Below the pieces are notes generated by a model. It was not told the origin of the DNA. It searched no databases and saw only the letters and a list, made by a program, of their open reading frames with translations. The position numbers and the translations under genes are program-made. Of a stretch of DNA of 64,000 nucleotides, positions 3,031 to 45,810 are shown piece after piece; positions within the stretch are counted from its first letter, which is position 1, and every line of letters begins with the position of its first letter. This DNA is from Candidatus Woesearchaeota archaeon (GTDB taxonomy: Archaea > Nanobdellota > Nanobdellia > SCGC-AAA011-G17 > PNOQ01): positions 7,236-71,235 of the forward strand of contig CAYMSW010000001.1 of NCBI GenBank assembly GCA_964393215.1, given 5' to 3'.

Positions 3031-5340
3031 ATGAAAGGGTTCATAATTTATCCAACATACAGAGTAATGAAAGACAAATCATTCGTATTCCTATTTGGTA
3101 GACTAGAAAATGGAGAATCGTTCCTAACAATAAATCAATTTGACCCATATTTCTTCATAGAAACAAAAAACCAAAAGAAAGCAGAAAAAATAGCTAAAGA
3201 TGCAAAATTCGAAAAAACAAATCTCACAAACTTCCAAAAAGAACCAGTAACAAAAATAATAGTAAACTCACCAAAAGAAGTTCCAGGAATAAGATCTGAA
3301 CTAGACAGACAAAAAATAAAAACATATGAGGCAGATATAAGGTTTCCAATCAGATTTTTGATAGATAATAATATACAAGGCTCACTAGATATAGATGGAG
3401 ACTACGAAAGCAACGATTACGTTGACAGAATTTACAAAGACCCGGACATAAAGTCAGTAGATTACACACCAACAAATCTAAAGATATTTTCATTTGACAT
3501 AGAATCAGACAAGAAAGGAAAACAACTATACTGCATCTCTGCTTATTCAAAGAATTACAAAAAATCATTCATAGTCTCAGACAAAAAATTCAGCAACTCG
3601 GTTTCCTGCAAAACAGAAGAAGAACTATTAGATAGATTCAGGGAAGAGCTGCTTAGTTTTGATCCAGACATAATCACTGGGTGGAATTTAATCAACTTTG
3701 ATCTAAACATGCTAAAAGAAAGATTCAAGAAATACGAAATCCCATTCAACTTAGGAAGAGATAATTCAATTTCAAAATTAAGAATAGAACAAAACTTCTT
3801 TAGAACAAGCAAGGCAGACATTTCTGGAAGAGTGGTTTTGGACGGAATAGATCTAACAAAATCATCTTTCGTCAAATTGGACAACTACAGATTAAACACT
3901 GTAGCAAAAGGGCTTCTAGGAAAATCAAAGATAATAGAAAAAACAGGAAAAGAAAAATACGAAGAAATAGATAGACTCTACAAAAAAGACCAAAAAAAAT
4001 TAATTGAATACAACCTACTGGATTCTGAACTAGCATATGATGTAATCACAAAAACAGTTCTAATGGATTTAGCAATACAAAGATCAAAATTAACAGGAAT
4101 GCCATTGGACAGAGTTAACGCATCTATAGCTTCTCTAGATTTCCTATACTTACAAAAAGCAAGAGAAAGAAAATTAGTAGCACCAACTGCAGATCCAAAA
4201 GAAAGAGAAACAAGAATAAAAGGCGGCTACGTAATGGAATCAAAGCCAGGAATTTACGATAACTTAATTGTTTTAGACTTCAAGTCACTATATCCTTCAC
4301 TTATCAGAACTTTCAACATTGATCCATCATCATATTTAGAAAAAAAGAAAAAAGGAGCAATAGAATCTCCAAACGGAGCGTACTTCGATTCCAAAGATGG
4401 AATTCTTCCAGAAATTATTCCAAAACTTTGGGCAGCCAGAGACAAAACAAGAGAGAAGAAAGACGAAATTGGAAGATATGCAATAAAAATCTTAATGAAT
4501 TCATTCTTTGGAGTATTAGCAAACCCTAACTGCAGATTTTATAACATAAAAATAGCAAACGCAATAACTCACTTCGGACAAGAATTAATTAAAAATACAG
4601 CAAAAATGGTTGGAGAGAAAGGATACGAAGTAATCTACTCAGACACAGATTCTATTTTCATAGACACAAAATCAGATTCGGAAAAAAAAGCAGGAGAAAT
4701 AGGGAAGAAATTAGAAAAAGAAATTAACCAATTCTACAAAAAACACATAAAAAAAGAATATAACAGAGAAAGCCGTTTAGAATTAGAATATGAAAAATTG
4801 TATACAAGATTTATGATGCCCAAGATAAGGGGCAGTGAAGAAGGAGCAAAGAAGAGATATGCAGGATTATTAAAAAAAGATGGAAAAGAAAAATTAGATA
4901 TAGTTGGACTAGAATCTGTAAGAGGAGACTGGACAGAAGCTGCAAAGAAATTTCAACTAGAACTATTGGATAGAATATTCCACAAAAAAGAAGTTACAAA
5001 ATTCGTTAAAAAATTCGTAGATGACCTAAGAGAAGGAAAATACGATGATGAGTTAATCTACAGAAAGGCTCTTAGGAAGGGGCTAGAGGGATACAAAGTA
5101 AATACTCCTCATTTAAAAGCCGCCAGAAAACTAAAAAAAATAGATTCAAGCAAAATAGAGTATTACATAACAACCGATGGACCTGAACCAATACAAGCAC
5201 TTAAACATAAAATAGATTATGAACACTATATCAATAAGCAAATAAAGCCAATTGCAGAAGCAGTTCTAGATTTTTTCGACACAAACTTTGATGAACTAAT
5301 AGAAGGGAAAAAACAAACTAACCTATTTGAGTTTAACTAA
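3031..5340 (+). CDS. polB: Family B DNA polymerase.
   Basis: Exonuclease motif FDIE, motif A DFKSLYPSLI, motif C YSDTDSIF and a KKRYAGL-like motif; 769 aa. Confidence 0.9.
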   Translation: MKGFIIYPTYRVMKDKSFVFLFGRLENGESFLTINQFDPYFFIETKNQKKAEKIAKDAKFEKTNLTNFQKEPVTKIIVNSPKEVPGIRSELDRQKIKTYEADIRFPIRFLIDNNIQGSLDIDGDYESNDYVDRIYKDPDIKSVDYTPTNLKIFSFDIESDKKGKQLYCISAYSKNYKKSFIVSDKKFSNSVSCKTEEELLDRFREELLSFDPDIITGWNLINFDLNMLKERFKKYEIPFNLGRDNSISKLRIEQNFFRTSKADISGRVVLDGIDLTKSSFVKLDNYRLNTVAKGLLGKSKIIEKTGKEKYEEIDRLYKKDQKKLIEYNLLDSELAYDVITKTVLMDLAIQRSKLTGMPLDRVNASIASLDFLYLQKARERKLVAPTADPKERETRIKGGYVMESKPGIYDNLIVLDFKSLYPSLIRTFNIDPSSYLEKKKKGAIESPNGAYFDSKDGILPEIIPKLWAARDKTREKKDEIGRYAIKILMNSFFGVLANPNCRFYNIKIANAITHFGQELIKNTAKMVGEKGYEVIYSDTDSIFIDTKSDSEKKAGEIGKKLEKEINQFYKKHIKKEYNRESRLELEYEKLYTRFMMPKIRGSEEGAKKRYAGLLKKDGKEKLDIVGLESVRGDWTEAAKKFQLELLDRIFHKKEVTKFVKKFVDDLREGKYDDELIYRKALRKGLEGYKVNTPHLKAARKLKKIDSSKIEYYITTDGPEPIQALKHKIDYEHYINKQIKPIAEAVLDFFDTNFDELIEGKKQTNLFEFN

Positions 5341-5401
5341 GGTTGACACGTTGACACAGACGCCAGTGAGCTATTTAAATTAAGTTTCTATAATTTGATT
5401 A

Positions 5402-6268
5402 ATGAAAAGAATTCCATGGAATAAAGGAAAAAAAGGATTACAAGTAGCTTGGAACAAAGGTTTAACGAAAGAGACAGACTCAAGAGTAAGAAAATATGCA
5501 TCTAAACTTCCCAAGGCAAGAAAAGGAATGAAACTTTCTGAGAGCCACAAAAGGAATATAGGAAATGCAATTAAAGGAAGAGTAGCACCAAATAAAGGCA
5601 TTCCTACTTCAGAGAAAACAAAGAAAAAATTGAGTAAACTTCTTTTAGGAAGGAAAAATCCATTCTATGGAAAAAAACATACATACGAAACAAGAAAAAA
5701 GATTTCATTATCTCGCATGGGCAAAGCTACAGGATCGAGAAACCCAAATTATATCGGGTTTGATATAGAAGAACATAAAGAGACAATAATAAACATGTAC
5801 TGGTCTGGAATGTCTGCAAACGAGATAGGCAGAAAATATGCTATTACGGGATCAACAATCTTAAAATATCTTAAAAATTGGAATATAAAACGCAGAAAAG
5901 GAGCATATGGATTTAGCGGACTATTATCATGTAAAGACAGCCATAAAGTAAGAAGTTACCCAGAACTCATAATCGATAATTTTTTGCATGAAAATGGAAT
6001 AAATCACGAAGTTGAAAAATCGTTTGATTTTAATAACAAAAAATACAAATGCGATTTTTATTTACCTGATTTGAATCTTTTCATAGAATATTGGGGAATT
6101 TATCATAATGAGAATTATTTGAAAAGAAAGGAAATAAAACTAATTTTATACAAAAAATTAAAGCTAAATCTTCTATCAATAGAATGGGACGAAAATCCGA
6201 TCGATAAACTAAAACCATTAATCCCCCTATGTGCCAAAAAACAGAAAGTATTAACAACTTTCAAGTAA
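5402..6268 (+). CDS. Free-standing nuclease resembling a homing endonuclease. It has N-terminal NUMOD3-type repeats, a helix-turn-helix, and a C-terminal restriction-endonuclease-like (PD-(D/E)xK, DUF559-like) domain.
   Basis: Three to four degenerate repeats of the form G-K-x-SE-HK-x-NIGNA-KG, NKG-P-SE-TKKKLS and GKKHTYETRKKIS. An HTH-like segment reads SANEIGRKYAITGSTILKYL. The C-terminus carries CDFYLPDLNLFIEYWG. Confidence 0.55.
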   Translation: MKRIPWNKGKKGLQVAWNKGLTKETDSRVRKYASKLPKARKGMKLSESHKRNIGNAIKGRVAPNKGIPTSEKTKKKLSKLLLGRKNPFYGKKHTYETRKKISLSRMGKATGSRNPNYIGFDIEEHKETIINMYWSGMSANEIGRKYAITGSTILKYLKNWNIKRRKGAYGFSGLLSCKDSHKVRSYPELIIDNFLHENGINHEVEKSFDFNNKKYKCDFYLPDLNLFIEYWGIYHNENYLKRKEIKLILYKKLKLNLLSIEWDENPIDKLKPLIPLCAKKQKVLTTFK

Positions 6269-6337: not shown

Positions 6338-7162
6338 ATGAAAGACTACAAATTACAAGGAAATCCAGTCGTAGAAACCCCAATCGTTGGAAATTTAATA
6401 TACGATGAATTAGGGCAAGCAGTTGTAAGAAAAGTAAATGAACAATTTAAAGGCATTCAAAGAATAGAATATTCTCAAAAATTCAAGAAAAATCAAACAA
6501 TTACACATTCAAACACTCCAAGAGCATTAGCAATTAATCAAATTTTAAATGAATTAGGAGTAAATGCTCATGTTTTATCACCAGAAGAAGTAGTTCAGTA
6601 TTGGGATGCAATACCAGAAAGAGGAACAACTTATGCAGATACAAATGGTATTGTAGTTTTTCCAAACGAAGGACCAAACGAAATATTAAAACATAGAGTT
6701 TTAAGAATAGTGGGAAGAAATTCGATAGAGGATCCATTAGTTGTTTCTGAGTTAGGCGTTGAGAGAGACGATTCTTTGGAATGTGGTTTTACTTTCACAG
6801 AAACTGGAAATATTTTAGTTAGAGAGGCTCCATATCTAAAACAAGATGGAAGAGTTTCATATAATTCAGAAAAAGGAGAATTAGAATCTTCAGAAGAAGG
6901 AGTAAAAATTTGGACTCCATCAAATCAATCAGGTCTCAGGAGGCTTTACCGTAGCGGGGTTGGCGGCCTTGTTGCTAGGTTCGATGATCTGTTGGTCGCT
7001 GGCGGGGATGGTCGGGTACAATTAGTACAAGACCCGCAGGGTCTTGTCGAAAAAATTTCTGAGATTCAACTATCTTTAAAAAGAAATAAAGATGCAAGAA
7101 TTGCAGAAATAAATGAAAGACATGAAAAGGCTCAAAAATACCTGAAAACAGGTCAACTTTAA
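6338..7162 (+). CDS. DGR target (variable) protein. The VR sits at residues about 199-227. No recognisable signal peptide or C-type-lectin (CLec) motif.
   Basis: It contains the 87-bp VR, which matches the downstream TR with adenine-specific differences. The function of the rest of the protein is unknown. Confidence 0.7.
   Translation: MKDYKLQGNPVVETPIVGNLIYDELGQAVVRKVNEQFKGIQRIEYSQKFKKNQTITHSNTPRALAINQILNELGVNAHVLSPEEVVQYWDAIPERGTTYADTNGIVVFPNEGPNEILKHRVLRIVGRNSIEDPLVVSELGVERDDSLECGFTFTETGNILVREAPYLKQDGRVSYNSEKGELESSEEGVKIWTPSNQSGLRRLYRSGVGGLVARFDDLLVAGGDGRVQLVQDPQGLVEKISEIQLSLKRNKDARIAEINERHEKAQKYLKTGQL
6932..7018 (+). repeat. DGR variable repeat (VR).
   Basis: It aligns to 7412-7498 over 87 bp. 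66 positions are identical. 20 differences fall at TR adenines and 1 at a non-adenine (TR g becomes VR c at 6967). Confidence 0.8.
7030..7044 (+). promoter_or_regulatory. GC-rich hairpin (agaccc-gca-gggtct) 12 nt downstream of the VR. It is a candidate target-recognition element for retrohoming.
   Basis: Perfect 6-bp inverted repeat with a GCA loop. It is absent downstream of the TR. It is analogous to the hairpin 3' of the VR in the Bordetella phage DGR. Confidence 0.45.
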
Positions 7163-7205
7163 TTTTTTATTATCTATATTTTTTTATATTATTTCTTTTT
7201 CATTA
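7163..7205 (+). terminator. T-rich tract after the target gene. It is a putative archaeal oligo-T terminator.
   Basis: Runs of 5-7 T immediately after the stop codon. Confidence 0.3.
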
Positions 7206-7411
7206 ACAAAGTCCTAGCTTCATTATTTGGAGAATATCCTTCCTAAGGACAAACCTATGAAGAATAATGACATGGGCTACACGCTTGTTCATAAATACAA
7301 CAAGAAATGTTGTAATGAAATACAATAAAGATAGTTAGTAGCTATAAAAGATGTGTTGGAAGCTCTTTCGCGAATACTAAATTTATGGTGAAAATAAAAT
7401 ATGAATAAGCT

Positions 7412-7498
7412 AGTCTCAGGAGGCTTTACCGTAACAGGAATGACGAGCTTAATGCTAGGAACGATAATCTGTTGAACGCTAACGAGAATGGTCGAATA
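7412..7498 (+). repeat. DGR template repeat (TR).
   Basis: Its adenines sit mainly in AAC/AAT codons in the VR reading frame. 20 of its 29 adenines differ in the VR. It lies directly upstream of, and partly overlapping, the RT ORF. Confidence 0.8.
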
Positions 7499-7531
7499 GT
7501 TCATGATATCGCTAGGACACATTTAATTAAG

Positions 7532-8630
7532 GTGAACAAAATAAAAACTTACAAAAATTTATACCCTAAAATATATTCCTATAACAATCTACTTCTAGCA
7601 TACAAAAAAGCAAAGAAGAGGAAAAGTTCAAAACAATATGTAATAGACTTCCAAAAAGATAAGCAAAGTAATATACTAAACATCAAAAAAGAGCTAGAAA
7701 AACAAACTTACAAACCATCAAAATTAACAAAAATAATAGTAAGGGATCCTAAAACAAGAACAATAAACAAATCCCAATTTAAAGATAGAATAATTCATCA
7801 TGCAATAGTCAACATTTTAGAACCAATCTATGAAAAAGTTTTCATAAACGACAATTACGCAAATAGAAAAAACAAAGGAACTCTAAAAGCAATACAAAGA
7901 TTCGACAAATTCAAAAGAACAGCAAGTAATAATGGAAAATTAGTAAAATACAATAAAAACAACAACATGGTTAAAGGATACATTCTAAAAGCAGATATAA
8001 AACGTTTCTTTGAAACAATTGACCAAGATGTATTATTAAATCTCCTAAAGAAGAAAATTAAAGACAACAAACTAATCTTATTAACAAAACAAGTATTATC
8101 TAATTATGGGGGGGGGCGAAGCCAAAGGAATGCCATTAGGAAATATGACTTCACAATTCCTAGCCAATGTTTATCTAAATGGGCTAGATTACTTCATAAA
8201 ACATAAACTAAAAGCAAAATATTACATAAGATATGTTGATGATTTTATAATTTTACATTCTTCAAAACAACAACTAGTCAAATGGAAAAAGGAAATAAGT
8301 AACTTCCTAAACAATGAATTAAAATTAGAACTACACAAAGATAAAACTAAAATATTTTCAATGTACAGAGGAACTAATTTCTTAGGATACAAATTATTCT
8401 ACAATTTCAAATTATTAAGAAAAAGAAACATAAATACATTCAAAAAAAGACTGAATAACAAAGTTAAAGAATACAAAAACAACCAATTGGACAAAGAAAA
8501 ACTATTAAGTAGCATTGATGGCTGGTTTGGATACGCCCAACATGCAAATACTTATAATTTAAGAAAGAGTATATTAAAAGAAATAAAGCTCACAAAAAAC
8601 GACAAACAAACAACTTTATTCGGATTTTAA
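7532..8630 (+). CDS. DGR reverse transcriptase, about 366 aa. It is interrupted by a frameshift in a 9-G run (8108-8116), so the ORF track shows two ORFs (7472-8206 and 8106-8630).
   Basis: RT domain 0 (YSYNNLLLAYKKAKK), domains 1-2 (RDPKTRTINKSQFKDRIIHHAI), domain 3 (ILKADIKRFFETID) and motif 4 (GMPLGNMTSQFLANVYL, with SQ rather than SP). Motif 5 is YVDD and domain 7 is LGYKL. There is no maturase or endonuclease domain. A likely GTG start lies at 7532 after the TR. Confidence 0.75.
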
Positions 8631-24197: not shown

Positions 24198-24641
24198 ACC
24201 AACTTCTACCAATCTTCCAGCCAAAACCATAGTATCGCCATCATACTCCTGTTCTGCCAATTCCACATACCATTTTCCAATAGATTCCATTACTTCCATT
24301 TTATCACCTCGGAAATAATATGTGAAGAATTACTTAAATAGCTCACGCGCGCCCATGTCAAGATGTCAAAGAATATCTATCCATAACATCCCGTATAACA
24401 AAGCAGTCTAATTTAGACACTTTTATATATCTAAATACAAAATAAATACCATGCGAAAAACTCCCATGAGATGTCCAAAATGTAATACAATTCGCACGTA
24501 TTTTGTATGATAGACTTATAGCAGGAGATGGAATTTCAGAGATGACTGATTCAGAAATAAGATCGGCTTCAGCATATGGAGATTATCTTGAAAATGGGAT
24601 AACGGATGAGACCTTGCGTGCTTATGTAATTTATAAAGCAA

Positions 24642-29331: not shown

Positions 29332-29637
29332 TTATCTTCTCCTTCTTGTTGTTTTTCTTGCAGTTGTTCTTCTCTTAGCAGTAGTTCTACGTGCAGTTGT
29401 TCTTCTCTTAGCAGTAGTTTTTCTTGCAGTAGCTCTTCTGGCTGTCTTTCTTTTTGCAGTAGTTCTACGTGTTGCTGTCTTTCTCTTAGCAGTAGTTCTA
29501 CGTGCAGTAGTTCTTCTCTTTGCAGTTGTTCTTCTCTTTGCAGTTGTTCTTCTTGCAGTAGTTCTACGTGCAGTCTTTCTCTTAGCAGTAGTTCTACGTG
29601 CAGTCTTTCTTTTTGCAGTTCTTCTTGCGGCTGCCAT
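29332..29637 (-). CDS. Extremely basic, low-complexity repeat protein. About 18 degenerate TA(K/R)R(K/R/T) pentapeptide repeats.
   Basis: 101 aa, of which about half are Arg/Lys. The underlying DNA has a 15/30-bp tandem periodicity. A strong SD, ggaggt, lies 8 nt upstream of the ATG. Confidence 0.5.
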   Translation of the reverse strand: MAAARRTAKRKTARRTTAKRKTARRTTARRTTAKRRTTAKRRTTARRTTAKRKTATRRTTAKRKTARRATARKTTAKRRTTARRTTAKRRTTARKTTRRRR

Positions 29638-29769: not shown

Positions 29770-30180
29770 ATGCAATACAAATACATAAGTCACACAGCGG
29801 ATGCAAAATTTGTAGCTTTTGGTAGAAACATCGACGGTGTTTTCAAGAACTCTGCACTAGCAATGTTTAACATTTTAGGTCCAACTAACAAAGTAAAAGC
29901 AACAAAAACAAAGAAAATTAAACTAAAATCAAAAAGTTACGAACAACTGTTGTACGATTTCTTAGAAGAGTTGTTGTTTCTGTTAGACACTGAACGTTTT
30001 TTCTTAAACAAAGTAAAAGAAATTAAAATAACAAAAGAGTTTGAACTAAGCGCAACAGTTTTAGGCGATGATTGTAGAAACTATGAATTAAAAAGCGATA
30101 TAAAGGCAGTAACATACAGCGATATGGAAATAAAAAAGACAAAAACCGGCTACGAAGCAACAGTAGTTATTGATATTTAA
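29770..30180 (+). CDS. Archease (RtcB activator). An alternative ATG lies at 29749.
   Basis: Starts MQYKYISHTADAKF and has a C-terminal YEATVVIDI. Confidence 0.8.
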   Translation: MQYKYISHTADAKFVAFGRNIDGVFKNSALAMFNILGPTNKVKATKTKKIKLKSKSYEQLLYDFLEELLFLLDTERFFLNKVKEIKITKEFELSATVLGDDCRNYELKSDIKAVTYSDMEIKKTKTGYEATVVIDI

Positions 30181-31609
30181 GATGGAATCAACAAAGAAAA
30201 TAAGAAAAAATGTCTATCAAGTAGACAAAAAAGGATCAATGAATGTTCCTGTTAAGATCTTTGCATCAGAGAAACTTCTATCAAAAATGGAACAAGACGA
30301 TAGCATTAAACAGGGAATTAATGTTGCATGCATGCCCGGAATTCAGAAACAGAGTATCATGATGTCAGATGCACATCAAGGATATGGATTTCCCGTCGGT
30401 GGAGTAGCCGCTTTTGATGTAAAGAAAGGATGTATTTCTCCAGGAGGAATTGGATTTGACATCAATTGCGGAGTTAGGCTTTTAACAAGTAACTTAACAA
30501 AAGAAGAAGTTGAAAAAGAGATAGACAACGTCTTAACATCCTTATTTGCAAATATTCCATGTGGAGTTGGCAAAGAATCAAAACTAAGATTATCAGACAA
30601 AGATTTTGATGAAGTTCTAAACACAGGTCTAAGCTGGACATTAAAAAACAAATACGCAACAAAAGAAGATTTAGACAGATGTGAAGAAAATGGACATATG
30701 AAAACAGCGGATGCAACAAAAGTTAGCCCAAAAGCAAGAAAAAGAGGAAGAAAACAATTGGGAACATTGGGTGCAGGAAACCATTTCTTAGAGATACAAT
30801 ATGTAGATAAGATATTTGACAAAGAAACCGCAAAAGTTTTCGGAATAAACAAAGAAAACCAAATTGTAATAATGATTCATACTGGTTCAAGAGGACTTGG
30901 ACACCAAACTTGTTCAGACTACTTAAGAAAAATAGAAGATGCCTTCCCAGAGGTAGTTTCAAAACTTCCAGAAAAAGACCTAGCATATGCTCCAACAGAT
31001 TCTAAACTTGCAAAAGATTATTTGGGTGCAATGAGTGCAGCAGCAAACTTCGGTTGGTGCAATAGACAAATAATTACTTACCAAGCAAGAAAGGCGTTTA
31101 ACAAAGTATTTGGCAGTGCCAAACTAGATTTGATCTATGATGTTGCACACAATATTGCAAAGGTTGAAGAATACACAATCAAAGAAAAAAAAACAAAAGT
31201 TTACGTTCACAGAAAAGGAGCTACAAGAGCATTTGGACCAGGACATAAAGAAATACCAAAAGTTTACAGAAAAGTTGGCCAACCCATCTTAATTCCAGGT
31301 TCAATGGGAACCGCGTCATATATTTTAGTTGGAACAGATAAAGCAATGAACGAAACATTTTCAAGTACACCTCATGGCGCAGGAAGACTAATGTCAAGAC
31401 ATGAAGCCAATAAAAGATTTGGTTCAGAGAAAATAATGGGGGATTTAGAGAAAAACAAAATTTATATTAAGGCAGCATCAAGAAGAGGAATAACCGAAGA
31501 AGCTCCGGGAGCCTACAAGGACGTTGACGAAGTAATAAAAGTCGCAGATGAAGTAGGTATTGGAAAAAAAGTGGCAAGATTAAAACCGCTTGGAGTAATC
31601 AAAGGTTAG
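30170..31609 (+). CDS. rtcB: RtcB-family RNA 3'-phosphate / tRNA-splicing ligase.
   Basis: Motifs GIGFDINCGVRL, HTGSRGLGHQ, PHGAGR and NHFLEI. Confidence 0.9.
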   Translation: MIFKMESTKKIRKNVYQVDKKGSMNVPVKIFASEKLLSKMEQDDSIKQGINVACMPGIQKQSIMMSDAHQGYGFPVGGVAAFDVKKGCISPGGIGFDINCGVRLLTSNLTKEEVEKEIDNVLTSLFANIPCGVGKESKLRLSDKDFDEVLNTGLSWTLKNKYATKEDLDRCEENGHMKTADATKVSPKARKRGRKQLGTLGAGNHFLEIQYVDKIFDKETAKVFGINKENQIVIMIHTGSRGLGHQTCSDYLRKIEDAFPEVVSKLPEKDLAYAPTDSKLAKDYLGAMSAAANFGWCNRQIITYQARKAFNKVFGSAKLDLIYDVAHNIAKVEEYTIKEKKTKVYVHRKGATRAFGPGHKEIPKVYRKVGQPILIPGSMGTASYILVGTDKAMNETFSSTPHGAGRLMSRHEANKRFGSEKIMGDLEKNKIYIKAASRRGITEEAPGAYKDVDEVIKVADEVGIGKKVARLKPLGVIKG

Positions 31610-34863: not shown

Positions 34864-36093
34864 TTACTTTTTACGGCGTTTATACATGAAAATTGCGTAA
34901 TTTGCGGGATTTTTGAACTTCTTCATAATGTGTTCTGGGTCAGGAATGCCCAAATCATCATAATAACCACTATTATCATAGTTTGGAGGAAGTATTTTCT
35001 CTCTCTGCCTTTTATGCCAGTTTAATTGAGACAATATATAACCTTCTTTCAAAGGTTCGGGATTTTGATCATTCCACTTTCTAACTAATTTTTCAATATC
35101 TTCAAAACCCCAACCAACAGTTTTCAAAAAATTCAATAAAATGAACAAAAATCTCTTTTTTCCATCTTCTAAACCTTCTAAACCTTTTTTTATGCTTTCG
35201 GGGAAGAATTCCTCAGGAACTTTATCAGTAAATTCCTCATATTTTTTTGCCGCACCAGTAGTTTCCAAATGCTCTTCTCTCCTAACTTCTCTCTCTTTTT
35301 TTCGATAATGCCAATCAAAGGCCTGCATCATAAGATTAGTTGCATCTTTCTCAATTATTTTATCTCTATTTTCCAAAAATTCAACATCAAATTTTACTGT
35401 TTCTGGATTGGCCAAACTTTTATCAAAACCCAATATATTTTCTGGCTTTATTGGCAAGCTAACTAAACCACTCTTTTCATGCATAGAATAGGGAGCCCTA
35501 TACATATGTCTGCTAGATATCAAAACAGTATCAATCTTTAGAGCTTCATCAACCCTCTCCTCAAATTTCTCAATCAAATGTTTCTTTATTATGCTAATTA
35601 AATACTCAGTTATTATTTTAGGTCCATCAGGAAACTGATCTTTTATCAAAATATCATTGACTTCAACAGGAAATGCTTCAAAAGGAACAACAATATGGAA
35701 ACCTTTGTTTCCGGAATACTTCACAAATATGCTTTTTACATCATTAAATTTCAAAGCCTCAACAAGAAAGTGTGAAACTACCTTTGAATCTTCTAAATCA
35801 GGACTATCAACATCAAGAACAAGATCCCAGCCAGCCCTCAAATTATCTAACTTCTTCTTAGGCATTCCCGGTTCCAAAGACAAAGGATCAGACCATCTTT
35901 CCTCGGAAATATGAAACGAAGTGCCACCATCTTTGGCAAAATCCAACACCTCTCCATCATATTGAATTATATTTGGCCGTCTAGCGAACCTATCTAAACC
36001 CAATTGCACGCCAACCTCTCTATCTTTACAGTTCGCTGCAATTCCTCTTTGCACATCCAATCTAGAGTAATACTTCAAAAAATTTACTTCCAT
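34864..36093 (-). CDS. priS: DNA primase small (catalytic) subunit PriS with an extra C-terminal helical domain of about 110 aa. The start was set at the internal Met MEVNF.
   Basis: Catalytic DLVLDVDSPD and FVKYSGNKGFHIVVP motifs. The C-terminal tail has no Cys. Confidence 0.75.
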   Translation of the reverse strand: MEVNFLKYYSRLDVQRGIAANCKDREVGVQLGLDRFARRPNIIQYDGEVLDFAKDGGTSFHISEERWSDPLSLEPGMPKKKLDNLRAGWDLVLDVDSPDLEDSKVVSHFLVEALKFNDVKSIFVKYSGNKGFHIVVPFEAFPVEVNDILIKDQFPDGPKIITEYLISIIKKHLIEKFEERVDEALKIDTVLISSRHMYRAPYSMHEKSGLVSLPIKPENILGFDKSLANPETVKFDVEFLENRDKIIEKDATNLMMQAFDWHYRKKEREVRREEHLETTGAAKKYEEFTDKVPEEFFPESIKKGLEGLEDGKKRFLFILLNFLKTVGWGFEDIEKLVRKWNDQNPEPLKEGYILSQLNWHKRQREKILPPNYDNSGYYDDLGIPDPEHIMKKFKNPANYAIFMYKRRKK

Positions 36094-36130
36094 AAAAAAA
36101 GGAAACGCCCTATGTCTTAAATATATTTGG

Positions 36131-36508
36131 TTACTGAGAAACAAGCTGGGATTCTATCTTTTGGACTTCAGAATTCATCTCAACAGAGATTTTCTTCAAC
36201 TCAGTTATCTGATTACCAATAATATTAACTGCGGATTTGAAATCTTTTTTAACAAGAATACCTGCACCAACATTCATTAGAACATCTTTTGGTTTCTTTA
36301 TCTCAGACTCTAAAAAAACTCCGCTTCCAAATGGAACAAAAGATTTTTTATCATCCATATCTTCCAAACCGCCAAGGCCTTCTTTTAATCCTTCTAATTC
36401 AACTATTTGTTGAGATATTGCATCAATTTGACTCTTAAGATTGTTCAAATTATGACTCATGAGCTGCATTTCAAGAGCTTGCAACTGCTCTTTATCTAAT
36501 CCTTTCAT
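36131..36508 (-). CDS. Prefoldin subunit (beta-type by size).
   Basis: Coiled-coil, beta-hairpin, coiled-coil architecture; 125 aa. Confidence 0.65.
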   Translation of the reverse strand: MKGLDKEQLQALEMQLMSHNLNNLKSQIDAISQQIVELEGLKEGLGGLEDMDDKKSFVPFGSGVFLESEIKKPKDVLMNVGAGILVKKDFKSAVNIIGNQITELKKISVEMNSEVQKIESQLVSQ

Positions 36509-36813
36509 TTTTTCTTTTTCTCTTTAGTTTCAACTTTCTTCTTAGGCGGGCTTCTCTTAACTTTCTTTTTCTCAACAACTTTCATTTTAGAAGTAGCCAT
36601 AGCTTTACGAACATCTGTTGTAGTCGCACCTTTTTTTATTTTAAGAACATCCTTCAATGGTTCCAAATGTTTAACATTACATTTCTTTCTTCTAACATTC
36701 CCATCTATTAGAACAAAACCATCTTTCATAACATCAACAACTACTGCAGTCTGTCCAGCATCCCTTCCAGCAATTTTGACACAAACTCTTCCAACTTCAA
36801 ACATTTTACTCAA
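36505..36813 (-). CDS. rpl14e: 50S ribosomal protein L14e.
   Basis: KOW-like EVGRVCVKIAGRDAGQTAVVVDV. Confidence 0.8.
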   Translation of the reverse strand: MSKMFEVGRVCVKIAGRDAGQTAVVVDVMKDGFVLIDGNVRRKKCNVKHLEPLKDVLKIKKGATTTDVRKAMATSKMKVVEKKKVKRSPPKKKVETKEKKKK

Positions 36814-37069
36814 TTTGCTCCTTTATCTTTTTCCTACTACAAGCAGAACACAATACTCCACCATACGGCCTAGAAGGTCTTTTCTTTGTTTTTGACAAGC
36901 TCTTAAACTTTGATTGTATTAATTTTGGAATTCCTTGCAAAGGTTTCTTACAAGAGCTACACTTCCTTATGCTCAAACTTCTTTTTTTATAATGAACGAC
37001 ATTCTTCCCACTAGGTGTTTTCACAAACACTCTTCTTAACGTTCTTGATTTATGTTTTCCTGCTGGCAT
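36806..37069 (-). CDS. rpl34e: 50S ribosomal protein L34e.
   Basis: Four Cys (CSSC ... CSAC) and a basic sequence matching L34e. Confidence 0.8.
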   Translation of the reverse strand: MPAGKHKSRTLRRVFVKTPSGKNVVHYKKRSLSIRKCSSCKKPLQGIPKLIQSKFKSLSKTKKRPSRPYGGVLCSACSRKKIKEQIE

Positions 37070-37070
37070 T

Positions 37071-37511
37071 TTAGTGTACCTTCATAAATTTTCTCAATGC
37101 TATGCTGAAGATTATGGAAAATATAATATATATCCATAACCAACTGTCTATCCATAGGAATTTAACTACTTCCTCGGCATATACACTTCTCAACCATCCA
37201 AAGATGATTATAAGTGGAATAAAGGTGATAAGCATCGGTTTAAAAGAGTTTTTCATTTGAATCATTGACTTATCCATGGACTTTTTTTGTAGTTCCATGA
37301 CTTTCTCAGGATTATCTTTAAACTCTTTCATCTCCTTTCTTATTTCTTTCATCTCTGCTTTAACAGACTTCATCAGATCTTGATCGGTCATAAACTTGTA
37401 AGCCAATGTAATCAGAAGAGTCAAAACAAAAGATATGAAAATTAATCCTCCAAGGGGGTCAGCTTCTATAGCCCATCCAAAAACACTATTGAAAAAATTG
37501 TCGAATACCAT
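37071..37511 (-). CDS. DUF106-family (archaeal Oxa1/YidC/EMC3-like) membrane insertase homolog.
   Basis: Three TM helices, a coiled-coil loop, and a position in the SecY cluster. Confidence 0.6.
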   Translation of the reverse strand: MVFDNFFNSVFGWAIEADPLGGLIFISFVLTLLITLAYKFMTDQDLMKSVKAEMKEIRKEMKEFKDNPEKVMELQKKSMDKSMIQMKNSFKPMLITFIPLIIIFGWLRSVYAEEVVKFLWIDSWLWIYIIFSIIFSIALRKFMKVH

Positions 37512-37543
37512 TCTTTAACTTTCAGCAATATTCTTTTTAAGCC

Positions 37544-38986
37544 TTACTCTCCCCCCATCATTTTTCTCAAAGCAGGATTCATATCCATCATATGCTGTTG
37601 AGCAATATCTTCATATAACCTATAAATAATCATAACAGCTAACAAGATACCAGTTCCTCTAGACAACGCACCAGTAAGATCTGCAGTAGCTGCTAAAATA
37701 CCAACTGCCGCACCACCCATAACCGTCAAAGGAGTAATGTATCTCTTCAAAACACTCTCTAAAACTCTTGGGTCTCTTCTAAAGCCAGGCATTTGCAATC
37801 CAGAAGATAATATTTGTTTAGCCTGTGACTTTGCATCCATTCCAGATGTTTGTACCCAGAAAATAGAGAACACAACTGCTCCAAGAACCATGAAAGACAT
37901 GTAAGACAATGCTTGAAGTATAGGAGTAACTCCCCAAACTCCAGATCTCATCCCACTCATTACATACTCAACTAAGTTAGGAGAGTATGTCCAATAAACT
38001 AAACCTGAAATAGGAACCTGTCCAGAAAACTGTCCAAATATATGTTGTGAAATCCAAGCCATAGCCCCGGTTTCACCAACTCTGTTCTGGAATAACCTTG
38101 CCCACAATTGAACGTTAGCCAACAAAGCAGCAACCAAAATAACTGGAATGTTAGATGTATAAATAAATTTCAAAGGCCATCTCATTCCATGACCTCTAAT
38201 TCTTCCAAAAGATAATGGAATCTCAACTTTCATAGCCTGAGCATAAACAGACATAACAAAAACAACAACGGTAAATAATATTGCAAAGAAAGGCATGGCT
38301 GCTCCCCAAATATCTGCATTCATCAAAGATCTAAAGAATACCCAAACTGCACCAACAGGTGGCAAACCAGAACCAAAAGCAAGTTTACCTGCAGTACTCA
38401 ATGGAGAAAATGCTCTAATAAATATCTCTTGCGAAACTCCTGCCGCAATAAATAAACTAACACCAGAACCAAAGCCCCATTTAGATACAACTTCGTCCAT
38501 AAATAAAATTAAAAATCCACCAAGGACTAACTGAAAAGCTAAAACGAACTGCATTGTCCTATACAAAGAAGGAGCTAATGTTGCAAGTGGTGCCAAACCA
38601 CCCATGAATACATAAATAAAAGCTTCAAATACTATGAAAAAGATTGCAAGTAATTTTTGCAAACCTTGGAAGTATTTCTTACCTTCTGCAGTTGTCAAAT
38701 CAATATTTAATATACCTGATCCAGTCAAAAGCTGCAAAACAATAGATGCAGTAACAATTGGACCAATACCCAAAGACATAATGGAACCAAAGCTTGCTCC
38801 AAGAATAATGGATAACTGTTCAAATTGAGCTAAAGAGTTTTGACCCAAACCAAACAAAGGAATCATAGAAAGAATAAAGAATGAAAACAAAATTATTCCA
38901 GTCCACTTCAATTTTTCTTTAAAGGACAATCTTTGAGTTGGACCTCTAACTTCTGGCAGATTGGCCATCAAGGTTTTTAGGAACAT
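37544..38986 (-). CDS. secY: Preprotein translocase subunit SecY.
   Basis: 480 aa, 10 TM helices, with a typical SecY N-terminus. Confidence 0.9.
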   Translation of the reverse strand: MFLKTLMANLPEVRGPTQRLSFKEKLKWTGIILFSFFILSMIPLFGLGQNSLAQFEQLSIILGASFGSIMSLGIGPIVTASIVLQLLTGSGILNIDLTTAEGKKYFQGLQKLLAIFFIVFEAFIYVFMGGLAPLATLAPSLYRTMQFVLAFQLVLGGFLILFMDEVVSKWGFGSGVSLFIAAGVSQEIFIRAFSPLSTAGKLAFGSGLPPVGAVWVFFRSLMNADIWGAAMPFFAILFTVVVFVMSVYAQAMKVEIPLSFGRIRGHGMRWPLKFIYTSNIPVILVAALLANVQLWARLFQNRVGETGAMAWISQHIFGQFSGQVPISGLVYWTYSPNLVEYVMSGMRSGVWGVTPILQALSYMSFMVLGAVVFSIFWVQTSGMDAKSQAKQILSSGLQMPGFRRDPRVLESVLKRYITPLTVMGGAAVGILAATADLTGALSRGTGILLAVMIIYRLYEDIAQQHMMDMNPALRKMMGGE

Positions 38987-39402
38987 ATTTCAGTTTCTCC
39001 ACCCGCTTCCTTTATTTTCTCAATAGCAGTCTTTGAAAATGATTTACACTTTACTTTTACTTTCTTTGTTAAATTTCCAGTACCTAAAACTTTATCGTAT
39101 TTAGAAGCATCAAATATGAAAAATCCACCAACTTCTTTATCTAAATTATCATTAATATATGCTAAATTCAAAACTTTATTCTTCTTACCAACTCTTCTCT
39201 GATTTTTGAAACCTTTCTTACCGAAATAAGCCAAACCAAATTCTTTCAATATAGTTGGTTTCTTCTGATCTGCTCTTTTACCAGTTCCAGCATTACCTCT
39301 TCCACCACGATTACCTGCTCCTCTATGTTTTTTCATAGAACCATAACCATGAGTGGTCTTTGCTCGCATTCTAGTTTTTTTCTTTCTCTTATTTACAGGC
39401 AT
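38977..39402 (-). CDS. rpl15: 50S ribosomal protein L15 (uL15).
   Basis: GAGNRGGRGNAGTGKR motif. Confidence 0.9.
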   Translation of the reverse strand: MPVNKRKKKTRMRAKTTHGYGSMKKHRGAGNRGGRGNAGTGKRADQKKPTILKEFGLAYFGKKGFKNQRRVGKKNKVLNLAYINDNLDKEVGGFFIFDASKYDKVLGTGNLTKKVKVKCKSFSKTAIEKIKEAGGETEICS

Positions 39403-39403
39403 T

Positions 39404-39874
39404 TTATAACATCCTTTGTATCAAATCATTAATTTTGTCTTTTCTATAACCTAAAGCACCGCCAAGTGAAAATGGCTTCTTAGTTCCCTTAGGTGCATAG
39501 CCCTTTGTAGGAGGGTTTAATCTGAAAAATGGTTTCAAACCAGGAATATCTTTTATCTTAATTTTGCCATCAATTAATTCAGAAGATAATTCATCAAAGT
39601 TTTTCTTTACTTTTTCCTTAAGATAACTTTCTTCAACTAAAATATTACCAGGCAATCTTCCTCTCTTCTCAATTAAAAGAGAAAGTGTTTCCTTATCTAT
39701 CTCTCCCCAAGTAGAATGATCTTTTATTACCTTAATCATGCCTTTAACATCATCAGTTGAATCTAAAACTGCACAAGTATTCTTTTTATGCAAGTTCAAT
39801 AGTTTGAAAGTATTCTTTACCTTTCTAACTAACCCTTGTTGTCCAGCAATCCTAATTATAGCTACTTTAGTCAT
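39404..39874 (-). CDS. rpl30: 50S ribosomal protein L30 (uL30).
   Basis: Sequence and operon position. Confidence 0.85.
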   Translation of the reverse strand: MTKVAIIRIAGQQGLVRKVKNTFKLLNLHKKNTCAVLDSTDDVKGMIKVIKDHSTWGEIDKETLSLLIEKRGRLPGNILVEESYLKEKVKKNFDELSSELIDGKIKIKDIPGLKPFFRLNPPTKGYAPKGTKKPFSLGGALGYRKDKINDLIQRML

Positions 39875-40634
39875 CCTTTCCTTCCGTCAAACCAGATATC
39901 TTATGATACTCTGGTCTTATTTTCATAGAGTTTAATTTTTTGAAAGCATCCATGCATGCACTAACTAAATTCAATTGTGTCTTTGTTTGCCCATACGTTT
40001 TTGAATATACATCTTTTATACCTGCAAACTTCAATATTTTTTGTATCTCTTTATGTGCAGTCAACTTAGTTCCTTTTGGTGCAGGAATAAGACTAATCTT
40101 TACACTTCCACATTTTCCAAGTGCATTAATTGGAATGGAATGATTTTCCCCACATGCACAAGACCATGAACCGCAACCTCTTCTAATCTTCATAATACTC
40201 AACTTTGCATTTCTAATTGCTTTTTCTCTGGCTGGAACAGTTTCCTTTGCTTTTCCTCTTCCAAGACCAACATAACCGTTTTTGTTACCAACAATAGCAA
40301 TTGTAGAGAATTTTGGTTTATTACCTTCACTAGTTTTCTTCTGAGTTTGTTTCCAAATACTCCTCTTACCTCCGCCAAACTTACCTTTAGATTGGCCTAC
40401 AGTAACTAAATCATATTCCAACTCGGGCAAAAGAACATCAACAATTTCTTGCTCAAGTATTTTCAAACCATTATCAAGTATTTCATCAATATTTTTTATC
40501 TCTCCGGCTTTTACCTTTTTTCCTAATTCAGTTTTAGGAATCCAATTTGAAATAGCCTCTTCCTTTCTAGATAATTCGGATTCCCTTCTGGAAACTGCAT
40601 CAGGTCTTTTCCTATTGTTTCTTTTCCTTTCCAT
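39867..40634 (-). CDS. rps5: 30S ribosomal protein S5 (uS5).
   Basis: Motif IVGNKNGYVGLGRGKAKE. Confidence 0.9.
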   Translation of the reverse strand: MERKRNNRKRPDAVSRRESELSRKEEAISNWIPKTELGKKVKAGEIKNIDEILDNGLKILEQEIVDVLLPELEYDLVTVGQSKGKFGGGKRSIWKQTQKKTSEGNKPKFSTIAIVGNKNGYVGLGRGKAKETVPAREKAIRNAKLSIMKIRRGCGSWSCACGENHSIPINALGKCGSVKISLIPAPKGTKLTAHKEIQKILKFAGIKDVYSKTYGQTKTQLNLVSACMDAFKKLNSMKIRPEYHKISGLTEGKDD

Positions 40635-41217
40635 TTGAACTTAATTTACTCCTTACTTCTTCAAAATTTTTAGGTAAATCCTCGGGATTCAACCCTTCTT
40701 TTAAATATTTTGAAAATTGTCTTTTGTGCTTCTCCTCATCAGATTTCTTCAATTCAGAAGAATAATTCGAGATTAATTTCCCGTTTAAAACATCTTCCTT
40801 TGGAAATATATCTTCAGAGTGAGGAACATCTATTCCGGAATCAACTATGCCCTTAATTGCAGAAGGCAATCTTGTTCCTTTTGTTATTGAATGAAGGCCA
40901 ATATCTATAACACCTTCAGTAATTTTTCCTTTGGCTTTTTGTCCAAAAAGTAATCCGGTTAAGTATGCTGCAGGAATTCCTCCAGTGGAACCTTTCCAAC
41001 CCAATTTTTTAAGCCCTATAGAATCAACAGTAAGCAAAATTTTATCACCATTCTCCATAAATTCAACCGCCTGTATAGTGATCTTATTTGTAGAAGGTCT
41101 CAAGACTATCCTAGTCTTACCAGAAGATATGAATTTTATTCTCTTCTTGTAATCAGTCTTACCTTTTCTCTTTCTCTTAAACTGAGTTGTGTGTGTTTTA
41201 CTTCTTGACATTTTCAA
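40612..41217 (-). CDS. rpl18: 50S ribosomal protein L18 (uL18).
   Basis: Sequence and position. Confidence 0.85.
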   Translation of the reverse strand: MKMSRSKTHTTQFKRKRKGKTDYKKRIKFISSGKTRIVLRPSTNKITIQAVEFMENGDKILLTVDSIGLKKLGWKGSTGGIPAAYLTGLLFGQKAKGKITEGVIDIGLHSITKGTRLPSAIKGIVDSGIDVPHSEDIFPKEDVLNGKLISNYSSELKKSDEEKHKRQFSKYLKEGLNPEDLPKNFEEVRSKLSSNGKEKKQ

Positions 41218-41656
41218 ATAACCTATTATCTGTTAAGTATGTTTTTACGTGACCTTTGCTTCTGAAATAACCACCTTTTATTTTTCTATAAATTGATCTA
41301 TAAGTTGGAACTGAGATTAACTTTTTATCTCTCAATTCTTTTGCAAAAGCTCTTTGAATTCTAATCTTATTTATCCATGCTCTTTTATCTCCAAGTCTAG
41401 CAGTTCTTTTTCCTTCTCTTGATCCTGAGCCGGTCTTTCTTCCTTTTCTCTTCTGTTTAAGAAGCTTTCTTGCTCTTACTCTTGAAACTGAGCTCTTCTG
41501 TTTTTTCTTAACTGCTTTCAATACACCCAATGCCCTTATGTCGGACCTAGTTATTGCTTCCTTTATCTCAGAAAGCTTATCACTATCAAAAGTTATTCTC
41601 TTTTTACCAACCCCAAATACCTTGGATGATAATTTCTTTTGCTTATCTAAGTTCAT
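41198..41656 (-). CDS. rpl19e: 50S ribosomal protein L19e.
   Basis: Sequence and position. Confidence 0.85.
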   Translation of the reverse strand: MNLDKQKKLSSKVFGVGKKRITFDSDKLSEIKEAITRSDIRALGVLKAVKKKQKSSVSRVRARKLLKQKRKGRKTGSGSREGKRTARLGDKRAWINKIRIQRAFAKELRDKKLISVPTYRSIYRKIKGGYFRSKGHVKTYLTDNRLFENVKK

Positions 41657-42309
41657 TGTTTAGTTCCAGGAACACTTCTTGCCAAATGTCCGCTTTTTGC
41701 TTTGGTTGTATCTTTTTTAACATCAATTGTTTTAGGAGTCTTCTTTTCTTCTTGCTTAGCACTCATTACATCTTTCTTTACTTCATCTTGTTTCTTTTCG
41801 TCTTCCTTCTTCTCTTTTTTCTCTTCCTTCTTCTTTGTAGCCTTATCTTCTTCCTTCTTCCTCTTAGTCTTTCTACTCTTAGACATATCTTTCCTCTTAG
41901 CTAACAAAGTTTTTGTACTTTCTAAAAATAATTTGATATCTTTAACATTTGAAACAGATATATTATCTGCAAGGCATTTCTCTAAAATTTTAACCTTATT
42001 TTTCAAACCAACATTAGATGCTATGACTGCTTGATATTTTGTATTATCAAATTCTTTCAAGTCAGCAACATTTTTTAAATAATAAAGTGATTTTCCATCC
42101 AATTGTAAAGATCTAACTAACTTTGGGGATCTATATCCAACAGAAGGATTTTTCTGATGTCCTTTTTTATGCAATCTACGCTTATTATGCAAACCTCTTG
42201 GCTTTCTCCATTTAGACATTGTTTTGCCTTTCAATTTATTGGAATCCTTTCTCACAAACTTTGGCTTTCTTGCCTTCAAAGTTTTTCTAATTTCCAATAA
42301 TTCTTTCAT
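41653..42309 (-). CDS. rpl32e: 50S ribosomal protein L32e with a K/E-rich C-terminal tail of about 85 aa.
   Basis: Core motif KGHQKNPSVGYRSPK. The tail runs KRKKEEDKATKKKEEKKEKKEDEKK... Confidence 0.85.
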   Translation of the reverse strand: MKELLEIRKTLKARKPKFVRKDSNKLKGKTMSKWRKPRGLHNKRRLHKKGHQKNPSVGYRSPKLVRSLQLDGKSLYYLKNVADLKEFDNTKYQAVIASNVGLKNKVKILEKCLADNISVSNVKDIKLFLESTKTLLAKRKDMSKSRKTKRKKEEDKATKKKEEKKEKKEDEKKQDEVKKDVMSAKQEEKKTPKTIDVKKDTTKAKSGHLARSVPGTKQ

Positions 42310-42854
42310 TCTTGTTGCTCCTCAGCCTTTTTTGTTATGTAAATTCCATCCTGGAATCTCCTTCTATCTCTGTTTGTAATCCTAGTAGATTTTTCCAGAT
42401 TTGCTGCGCTCTGACCAACTGCTTCAATATCTGGTCCGGAAAGAGTAATTATATCTTTGTCAATCTTAGCGTTGACAGTTTCAAGTATCTTTGCACTTCT
42501 TGGTATTTTTTCTCCCAAAAAGTTCTTAATTACCACTTTATTGCCTTCTTGAGTTACAGTCATTGGAAAGTGTCCTGAACATATTTTCAAAGTATAAACA
42601 AAATCTTTCTTAACGCCAACAAACATATTTATTATATGAGCCTTCAAAGTTTTCAAAACGGTTTTCTCTCTCTTAGATGCGTTAGCATATTCAAGAGAAA
42701 GTGTAGAATCTTCCTTCTTTACTTTAAGACCAGGATAAAAATATTTCCTCTCAAGGTTGCCATTTGGTCCTGTAACTTTCATAATTAAAGGTTCCAAAGT
42801 TACTTCAACGCCTTCGGGAATTTTTACTGTGTCTCTCAGATTTACCTTAACCAT
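42306..42854 (-). CDS. rpl6: 50S ribosomal protein L6 (uL6).
   Basis: Sequence and position. Confidence 0.9.
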   Translation of the reverse strand: MVKVNLRDTVKIPEGVEVTLEPLIMKVTGPNGNLERKYFYPGLKVKKEDSTLSLEYANASKREKTVLKTLKAHIINMFVGVKKDFVYTLKICSGHFPMTVTQEGNKVVIKNFLGEKIPRSAKILETVNAKIDKDIITLSGPDIEAVGQSAANLEKSTRITNRDRRRFQDGIYITKKAEEQQE

Positions 42855-42855
42855 T

Positions 42856-43248
42856 TTAATAACAATAAGCGATTAGTTTTCCTCCTAAGCCTTTCTCTAC
42901 TGCCTCTTTATGTGTCATCAAACCTTTTGGAGTAGATACAATAATTATACCGAAGTCATGTGCTGGAAGATATCTCTTCTCAAATTTCTCGTATTCATTC
43001 TTCTTTACGGAAAACCTAGGCTTTATTACTCCACACTTATTTATGGTGCCGTTCAAAGTAATTTCCAAAGTTTCTCCTTTAGTACTTTCAATAGATTTGA
43101 AATCGCCAACATAATTATTATTCTTAAGAATATCAAAAACAGATTTTATCAATTTTGATGCATTCTTGATTATAGTAGTCTTGATACTTTTCTTCTCACA
43201 ATTCAAAATGTGAGACATTGCATTTGCTAATGGATCGTTTAATGACAT
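42856..43248 (-). CDS. rps8: 30S ribosomal protein S8 (uS8).
   Basis: Sequence and position. Confidence 0.9.
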   Translation of the reverse strand: MSLNDPLANAMSHILNCEKKSIKTTIIKNASKLIKSVFDILKNNNYVGDFKSIESTKGETLEITLNGTINKCGVIKPRFSVKKNEYEKFEKRYLPAHDFGIIIVSTPKGLMTHKEAVEKGLGGKLIAYCY

Positions 43249-43257
43249 TTTTTAACC

Positions 43258-43488
43258 TCAACTGTATTTTTTGAAACCAATGCTCTTTGCTACTTCCCTA
43301 AAGCACTGTCTGCACAAACCCATACCATATTTTTGAATATGTGCACCGTTTCTTCCACATCTCCTACATTTTCTTAGCGCCTTTCCACAACTTCTTTTCT
43401 TTGGCTTATTGTGCTTGATGAACTTTGTCAACTTTGCGGGTTTTGCCTTAAGCTGCTTGAATGCTTTTCTATGATCGCTAGTGGTCAT
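43258..43488 (-). CDS. rps14: 30S ribosomal protein S14 (uS14, Zn-ribbon type).
   Basis: CRRCGR ... CRQCFRE. Confidence 0.85.
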
Positions 43489-43489
43489 T

Positions 43490-45081: not shown

Positions 45082-45082
45082 T

Positions 45083-45484: not shown

Positions 45485-45810
45485 TTTAATTTCTCAATTA
45501 TTACAAATTTCTTTGTCTTACTGATTGGTCTACATTCGACAATTTTTACATCATCACCTACATTACAATCTAAACAAAGAGGATTATGCACGCTGAACTT
45601 TGAAGTTCTATGTTCAAATCTTTCATACTTTCTAACTGGTCTAATTCTAGATAGCTGAACTCTTGCAGTTTTGTGAGTATCTTTTGAAACAACTTTGCCT
45701 CTAAAGACACGACCCCTCAAACTTAATCCATTATGAATTGGACATTTCTTATCGTCGCACTTCTTGCTAAGTACATTCGCTTCAACTTTGATTTCTTTTC
45801 TTTCGCTCAT
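45481..45810 (-). CDS. rps17: 30S ribosomal protein S17 (uS17).
   Basis: Sequence and position. Confidence 0.9.
   Translation of the reverse strand: MSERKEIKVEANVLSKKCDDKKCPIHNGLSLRGRVFRGKVVSKDTHKTARVQLSRIRPVRKYERFEHRTSKFSVHNPLCLDCNVGDDVKIVECRPISKTKKFVIIEKLK

Follow-up and report, generated by a model that had tools for sequence, protein, structure and literature searches.

The closest described counterparts of the element reported here are the DUSEL4 diversity-generating retroelements (DGRs) with their variable protein AvpA and the archaeal clade 5, which lie on the chromosomes of DPANN archaea (PMC4372165, PMC5006420, PMC8144416). Their target proteins, of about 260-275 amino acids, contain a single divergent C-type lectin (CLec) domain and have neither a transmembrane segment nor a signal peptide; the variable repeat (VR) of 27-29 residues is internal and is followed by a helical extension of some 46-47 residues, within which lies a hairpin that has a trinucleotide loop. 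All of these traits recur within positions 6338-8630 of a 64,000-nucleotide stretch of DNA from a Candidatus Woesearchaeota archaeon (contig CAYMSW010000001.1), hereafter called the window, where a target gene, a template repeat (TR) and a reverse transcriptase (RT) gene follow one another. The element in the window is a known kind of DGR, already described in DPANN archaea. Taken alone, it extends the record by a single DPANN DGR and by a new family of CLec-like targets; the findings that come from comparing it with its relatives outweigh it in importance.

The correspondence with DUSEL4 extends to the initiation of mutagenic homing (IMH) site, where the target reads GGGT and the counterpart at the TR (IMH*) reads GAAT; the DUSEL4 pair is TGGGGT/TGGAAT (PMC4372165). 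A locus from the DUSEL4 genome AAA011-G17 (L043) encodes an RT that is 56% identical to that of the window and also matches RT-16, a structured RNA discussed below. The window differs from DUSEL4 in its separate target family, in a hairpin loop of GCA rather than GRA and in an RT gene that is frameshifted at a poly-G tract, and the RT-16 leader and closing helix of its template are not described in the DUSEL4 and clade 5 papers. With the DGR of Bordetella phage BPP-1 (Mtd/Avd/TR-Sp/bRT) the window shares adenine-specific transfer, AAY codons, a CLec target, an IMH with a downstream hairpin and a homologous RT, whereas it has no Avd and its VR lies short of the extreme C-terminus of the target. 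The structured RNA is also placed differently. In the window it lies 5' of the TR, in the form of RT-16, and the closing helix would place it at the TR's 3' end, while in BPP-1 the structured Sp/RT-10 region is 3' of the TR (PMC5737381).

The repeat pair itself carries the evidence for mutagenic homing (Table 1). Aligned without gaps, VR and TR are identical at 66 of 87 nucleotides, and 20 of the 21 mismatches fall on a TR adenine (15 A>G, five A>T and no A>C). Given 29 adenines among the 87 TR bases, one third of the mismatches would be expected at adenine, and the binomial probability of 20 or more is about 4e-9. When read in the target open reading frame (ORF; 6338-7162), the mutated adenines are first or second bases of their codons, mainly of AAC and AAT. 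Re-alignment and tabulation thus return the counts of a first-pass annotation, made from the letters alone, which had noticed two 87-bp segments identical at 66 positions, had placed 20 of 21 differences at a TR adenine with G or T in the VR, and had assigned the TR adenines mostly to AAC/AAT codons. Three of the adenine differences, at 6932 (the 5' edge) and at 7015 and 7016 (GGTCGGGTAC versus GGTCGAATAG), are invariant across all relatives; being the same in every one of them, they represent boundary and IMH/IMH* differences and not mutagenesis, so that 17 changes of the variable type remain. The IMH/IMH* difference, which takes the form TCGGGT/TCGAAT in the window, is repeated in all ten related loci. 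Neither a second repeat pair of the TR/VR kind nor an extra copy was found in the 64-kb window.

Relatives carry the same kind of record. Eighty related DPANN loci were fetched by RT alignment, the target alignment being too little conserved for a contig scan, and the states of VRs and G tracts were read from assembled contigs. Across the target family, codons with a TR adenine at position 1 or 2 show a column entropy of 1.95 bits, versus 0.55 bits for the other VR codons. A sister cluster (P0004), whose TR peptide is that of the window, comprises three VR alleles in which 11 of the 29 VR residues differ, as against 1-3 of the 248 residues outside the VR. The TR peptide, SLRRLYRNRNDELNARNDNLLNANENGRI, is likewise the same in the sister locus L002. 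At non-adenine sites TR and VR change in concert, reading GGTCG in both copies in the window and GGCCG in both copies in L032, the nearest relative. The layout of target, RT-16, TR and RT is repeated in nine metagenomic loci and in L032, which is syntenic with the window.

The absence of a visible avd gene, also remarked upon in the first-pass annotation, holds on closer inspection: target and RT have no ORF between them, the genes on either side encode PolB, a NUMOD3 protein and FEN1, and no Avd-type Pfam match was obtained among 20 further window ORFs, ten of which are 91-152 amino acids long. Because avd is missing from about 26% of surveyed DGRs (PMC5758913), Avd is not strictly defining. 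Read against what is known of the family, the element would have worked as follows. A non-coding RNA of about 310 nt would be transcribed from a TATA-like box near 7185 and would fold as a unit held by the closing helix, with the RT-16 domain first and the TR after it. The downstream RT, which is of the DGR clade, would copy the TR into complementary DNA (cDNA) and misincorporate opposite adenines, and the cDNA would then replace the VR of the upstream target under the guidance of the IMH and of the hairpin beyond it. As a result, some 14 positions on the surface of a CLec-like binding protein would be recoded, and part of what Avd does elsewhere presumably falls to the 5' RNA scaffold.

We are highly confident that the element is a chromosomal DGR of the DPANN, or nanoarchaeal, type, that it preserves a record of past mutagenic homing and that it is currently switched off through a run of nine G residues (G9) in its RT gene. 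Several points speak against this reading. One mismatch does not involve adenine (TR G7447, VR C6967); the assembled target versions of the window population, P0001 and P0173, have identical VRs; and the transcript ends, the priming site and the independence from Avd are matters that we infer. The direction of the non-adenine mismatch is ambiguous, since the site is C in both TR and VR of L032 and G in both of L002; related TRs are polymorphic for G and C there. As for the identical VRs, they fit an inactive element without proving inactivity.

The RT gene of the window element departs from what had been annotated. The first-pass annotation had read motif 4 as TSQ, the DGR signature, and this stands: the merged protein has the motifs ...PLGNMTSQ... 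and YVDD, is matched by Pfam RVT_1 and has bRT as its closest solved relative. The annotation had also spoken of a small RT, which is not intact, and it missed the frameshift. The RT is in fact split over ORFs in two frames (7472/7532-8206 and 8106-8630) that switch at the G9 run, which is one of two G/C runs of six or more in the window, the other being C6 at 37551-37556. The start at GTG 7532 is deduced from homologue lengths of 350-370 amino acids. Removal of one G restores ...NYGGGEAKGMPLGNMTSQ... and gives a 365-residue RT with ...NYGGGEAKGMPLGNMTSQFLANVYL...YVDDF. The window copy therefore lacks an intact, expressible RT, a finding that bears on current activity and not on DGR identity. 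We take the element to be a true DGR in an off state, which could be a reversible phase-off or an early pseudogene, unless it depends on slippage.

The strongest competitor holds that the element is active and that G9 is a site of phase variation or slippage, working through DNA of the G8 length, a transcript lacking one G or ribosomal slippage by +1, so that the tract is an ON/OFF switch for hypermutation and not a sign of decay. We regard this explanation as tentative, well worth keeping in view and yet somewhat short of an even chance. In its favor, sense-strand tracts of G7-G11 are about seven-fold denser in the RT genes of the clade than in their flanks (15 distinct tracts in 91 kb versus 16 in 618 kb, p 1.7e-6; the tract of L116 is the window's own and is not among the 15), and they sit at three recurrent loop positions of the RT. 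They occur in the window and at L032:6640, L023:1479, L041:4580, L047:4414, L057:3433, L059:1203, L099:4543 and L102:1279, among others. Both in-frame and out-of-frame alleles are found in the clade: most tracts are in frame (L032 with G10, L041 with G9, L047 with G11 and others), whereas the out-of-frame ones include L023, L059 and the window. The window and L032, each other's closest relatives, have tracts of unequal length (G9 and G10), the RT of L032 being intact and 87% identical to that of the window, and the single-G deletion described above restores the reading frame. Set against this, three assemblies uniformly have G9, two further indels relative to L032 lie close to the tract, which may for that reason not be the sole lesion, and the sequence CGAA directly after seven of 31 tracts hints at a different origin (G(n)CGAAGCC is the same in the window, L102 and L040). 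The enrichment nevertheless raises the chance that the frameshift of the window is a phase-off state. More generally, the poly-G tracts suggest phase variation of the RT, and thus that hypermutation itself may be phase-variable; a search of the literature on DGRs with homopolymeric tracts returned nothing relevant.

A sequencing or assembly error at G9, with the RT intact in the organism, is improbable. Homopolymers are error-prone, and correction of one base yields a full-length RT with every motif, but the identical G9 and its flanks appear in L116 and L117, contigs that come from two further samples (SAMN11854489 and SAMN10231901). Errors of equal length in three assemblies are unlikely, and the recurrence of the tract in two independent assemblies indicates that the frameshift is probably real. 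The notion that there is no DGR here, that the RT is of the group II intron or retron kind and that the 87-nt repeat is a chance similarity or the remnant of a duplication, deserves next to no credence: although the top NCBIfam model for the RT is a group II RT/maturase (TIGR04416, 155 bits) and a weak retron RT match exists, the group II and retron matches fall far under their cut-offs of 300 and 235 bits (DRT models also score well under theirs), the best PDB match of the merged RT is Bordetella bRT (8ub7, E 4.5e-44), 20 orders of magnitude ahead of a group II intron RT (1.5e-24), Rfam detects neither group II intron nor retron RNAs in the window, and neither the adenine bias nor the family-wide hypervariability of the VR at TR-adenine codons accords with it.

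The comparison with relatives uncovered a second feature of these templates. An ungapped, adenine-tolerant search missed the TRs of most relatives, and this failure exposed inserts that are present in the TR and have no counterpart in the VR. Such inserts, 17-44 nt long, occur in seven of the 11 target-family loci with a TR, with L017 as an ambiguous eighth, and in 13 or more of the 80 fetched DPANN loci, or about a third of related DPANN DGRs (for example L013:7080-7250, L043:1646-1762, L039:3812-4029 and L051:3830-3975). Several TRs have more than one: L039 has three, L051 two and L050 three, one of which passes the clean-context test. A bulge-helix-bulge (BHB) geometry fits 20 of the 21 inserts with clean context exactly. 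The last bases of exon 1 are a strand of 4 nt, called H, and 2 nt after it; those of the insert are the complementary strand, H', likewise with 2 nt after it; and an inner stem of 2-9 bp starts one nucleotide further on. Any other combination of offsets fits at most five of the 21. Depending on the locus, the H/H' pair is CUCG/CGAG, CUCG/CGGG, AACG/CGUU, CGAG/CUCG, CAGG/CCUG, AUGA/UCAU or UGCG/CGCA, and minimum free energy (MFE) folds contain H in 16 of the 21 inserts and H together with the 3-nt bulge in 15.

This geometry is that of a familiar class of archaeal intron. BHB introns occur in the cbf5 mRNA. They are also found in archaeal tRNA and rRNA, where the splicing endonuclease cuts and RtcB joins the exons (PMC12397907, PMC3239211), and the endonuclease cuts the BHB between bulged nucleotides 2 and 3 (PMC12397907). 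The TR inserts resemble these introns in the 4-bp helix, the 3-nt 5' bulge that usually begins with A, the inner stem-loop and the position of both junctions between bulge nucleotides 2 and 3. They differ in that the host RNA is the template of a retroelement, with up to three inserts per TR, and in that the outer helix is absent or 0-2 bp long, which places them with the relaxed form (HBh'/BHL-like).

Other origins for the inserts were considered and rejected. Hairpin-skipping by the RT is at odds with a VR that keeps the 5' strand of the helix and loses the 3' strand, a pattern that fits splicing and not RT skipping; it is also at odds with junctions that both lie 2 nt past the helix strands in 20 of the 21 inserts. 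Neither skipping nor an insert that the TR acquired recently, since its last homing event, is compatible with the co-evolution of TR and VR on both sides of the insert. Since adenine mutations and concerted non-adenine changes flank the insert, homing continued while the insert was retained in the TR. In the intron-bearing relatives, the alignments imply that the VR would have been copied from a spliced TR RNA.

The insert of L043, from the DUSEL4 genome, begins exactly where the printed group ii TR ends, ...CAGAACTC (Paul et al. 2015), and differences in length between TR and VR have been noted and ascribed to slippage (Wu et al. 2018). The window TR has no intron and aligns to its VR without a gap; at the intron site it reads AAC GCT AAC GAG, where relatives have AAC TCG AA^T GAG. 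The window does encode, side by side, Archease (29770-30180) and RtcB (30182-31609), the tRNA-splicing ligase and its cofactor, which BHB splicing would require for ligation. We consider it probable that the template RNA of these elements is matured by the host, the one to three BHB introns in the TRs of about a third of the relatives being removed by the splicing endonuclease and RtcB before reverse transcription, with the intron-less window TR as a derivative and the poly-G tract of the RT perhaps as an ON/OFF switch. We found no literature that links DGRs to BHB motifs or to the splicing endonuclease; Paul et al. 2017 (Nat Microbiol) was outside that search, so that an earlier mention of TR introns is possible.

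If TR introns are indeed spliced by the host, these loci amount to a natural 'intron in the template' experiment that reveals RNA-mediated information flow in uncultured archaea, and DGR activity would be tied to host RNA processing. Host splicing would also explain why DGR finders that allow no gaps or short ones truncate or miss archaeal TR/VR pairs. As a separate observation, the VR that goes with L023:688-1100 almost equals the spliced TR, since beyond the IMH a single adenine has changed. This locus, whose RT is frameshifted at a G9 tract, looks like a barely mutagenized copy.

Between target and TR the window has 249 nt of non-coding sequence, and a further 33 nt separate the TR from the RT. 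A match to the Rfam family RT-16 (RF03019) at 7254-7418 reaches 90.3 bits, where the gathering score is 50, and covers model positions 1-158 of 158. RT-16 has been published as a structure near RT genes, without a function (Weinberg et al. 2017, PMC5737381). It was found in 17 of the 19 related DPANN loci tested (L036-L054), and wherever RT-16 and TR were both cleanly mapped the end of the match and the start of the TR lie at most a few nucleotides apart. Judging from sequence comparison, the template RNAs of DPANN DGRs have RT-16 as their 5' domain. A predicted closing helix joins RT-16 and TR into one unit. The MFE structure calculated for 7205-7525 (z -3.3) includes this helix, which covaries among relatives (GTCCTAGT/ACTAGGAC, GCCCTAGC/GCTGGGGC and others) while being highly variable in sequence; a helix that reaches from about 40 nt upstream of RT-16 to just past the TR is significant relative to shuffled sequences in 21 of 45 loci. 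AT-rich, TATA-like motifs lie at the matching place in relatives. As a 5' scaffold of Avd-less DGR RNAs, RT-16 offers a defined RNA for the reconstitution of an Avd-independent DGR. In the literature that we found, TR inserts with BHB geometry, RT-16 as a 5' domain of DGRs and poly-G enrichment are all absent.

Table 1. Features of the DGR and its immediate surroundings (window coordinates)
Feature	Position	Strand	Remarks
Target (variable protein) gene, 274 aa	6338..7162	+	C-type-lectin-like domain; C-terminal helix at residues 236-271
Variable repeat (VR)	6932..7018	+	target residues 199-227; last 9 nt within the IMH
IMH GGTCGGGTAC	7010..7019	+	fixed GGG opposite TR GAA
GC-rich hairpin/cruciform ACAAGACCC-GCA-GGGTCTTGT	7027..7047	+	9-bp stem, 3-nt loop, within the target ORF
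Candidate archaeal TATA box TTTATATT	7183..7190	+	putative, for the TR transcript; 21-28 nt upstream of the closing helix
Closing helix, 5' strand GTCCTAGC	7211..7218	+	pairs with 7511-7518
Structured leader, Rfam RT-16 (RF03019)	7254..7418	+	abuts or overlaps the first TR bases
Template repeat (TR)	7412..7498	+	29 adenines, without intron; IMH* GGTCGAATAG at 7490-7499
Closing helix, 3' strand GCTAGGAC	7511..7518	+	12 nt past the TR
RT gene, 5' part	7532..8116	+	probable start GTG 7532; frame continues to a stop at 8206
G9 homopolymer	8108..8116	+	frameshift point of the RT
RT gene, 3' part, +1 frame	8117..8630	+	GMPLGNMTSQ (TSQ 8148-8156), YVDD (8232-8243); Pfam RVT_1

The protein encoded by the target gene has a CLec-like fold that carries the VR. 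Searches of the target against Pfam and NCBIfam identified no family, the single hit being DUF7526 at E 0.035, under its cut-off, and the profile of the target family found no match among PDB sequences. In the absence of detectable sequence similarity to any solved structure the targets form a separate family, which is new and has about 50 members. The VR is followed by 47 residues that form a helical tail, with the GC-rich hairpin inside their coding sequence, which agrees with the initial placement of the VR about 48 codons before the stop and away from the extreme C-terminus. The hairpin encodes QDPQG, and this peptide is conserved in the alignment of the target family because the hairpin underlies it. 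The first-pass annotation had further described a target without a signal peptide or an obvious CLec motif, possibly of a poorly characterized fold, and had summed up the whole as a compact, avd-less DGR with an unusual protein. Both absences are real, and the element is an avd-less DGR; its fold and architecture are not unusual, given that an internal VR, about 47 residues after it, a hairpin within the ORF, no signal peptide or transmembrane segment and no recognizable CLec motif are the norm for nanoarchaeal DGRs (PMC4372165, PMC5006420, PMC8144416). Elsewhere in the family, targets at L012:5208-6792, L022:46-1771, L006, L007, L019 and L031 are tandem paralogs or have no RT detected in the downstream flank that was fetched, and these may be remote or orphan targets.

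Upstream of the target lie PolB (3031-5340) and a protein with NUMOD3 and helix-turn-helix (HTH) domains, and FEN1 begins 2 nt past the stop of the RT gene, so that the element sits between PolB and FEN1. The order PolB, NUMOD3 protein, target, RT and FEN1 is kept in L032, on a 178-kb contig (GCA_964474895.1), and homologs of RT and target are named Woesearchaeota or Nanoarchaeota. Together, the synteny and the names of the homologs indicate that the element is chromosomal and resides in a DPANN archaeon.

Some further observations concern the rest of the window. The NUMOD3 and HTH protein (5402-6268), which has the same place in L032, contains no detected nuclease domain and may be the remnant of a DNA binder of the homing-endonuclease type. 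The arms of an inverted repeat of 36 nt (TTGACACGTTGACACAGACGCCAGTGAGCTATTTAA), which are 81% complementary, lie 19 kb apart at 5343-5378 and 24334-24369, one of them within the spacer between PolB and the NUMOD3 gene. Beside Archease, a tandem repeat with a 15-nt period (29332-29637, minus strand) lies in a lysine-rich ORF of 101 amino acids and an isoelectric point of 12 that is HC2/histone-H1-like. Finally, a big cluster of small basic ORFs at 36000-50000 on the minus strand, presumably a ribosomal protein operon, confirms by where it lies the housekeeping, chromosomal context.

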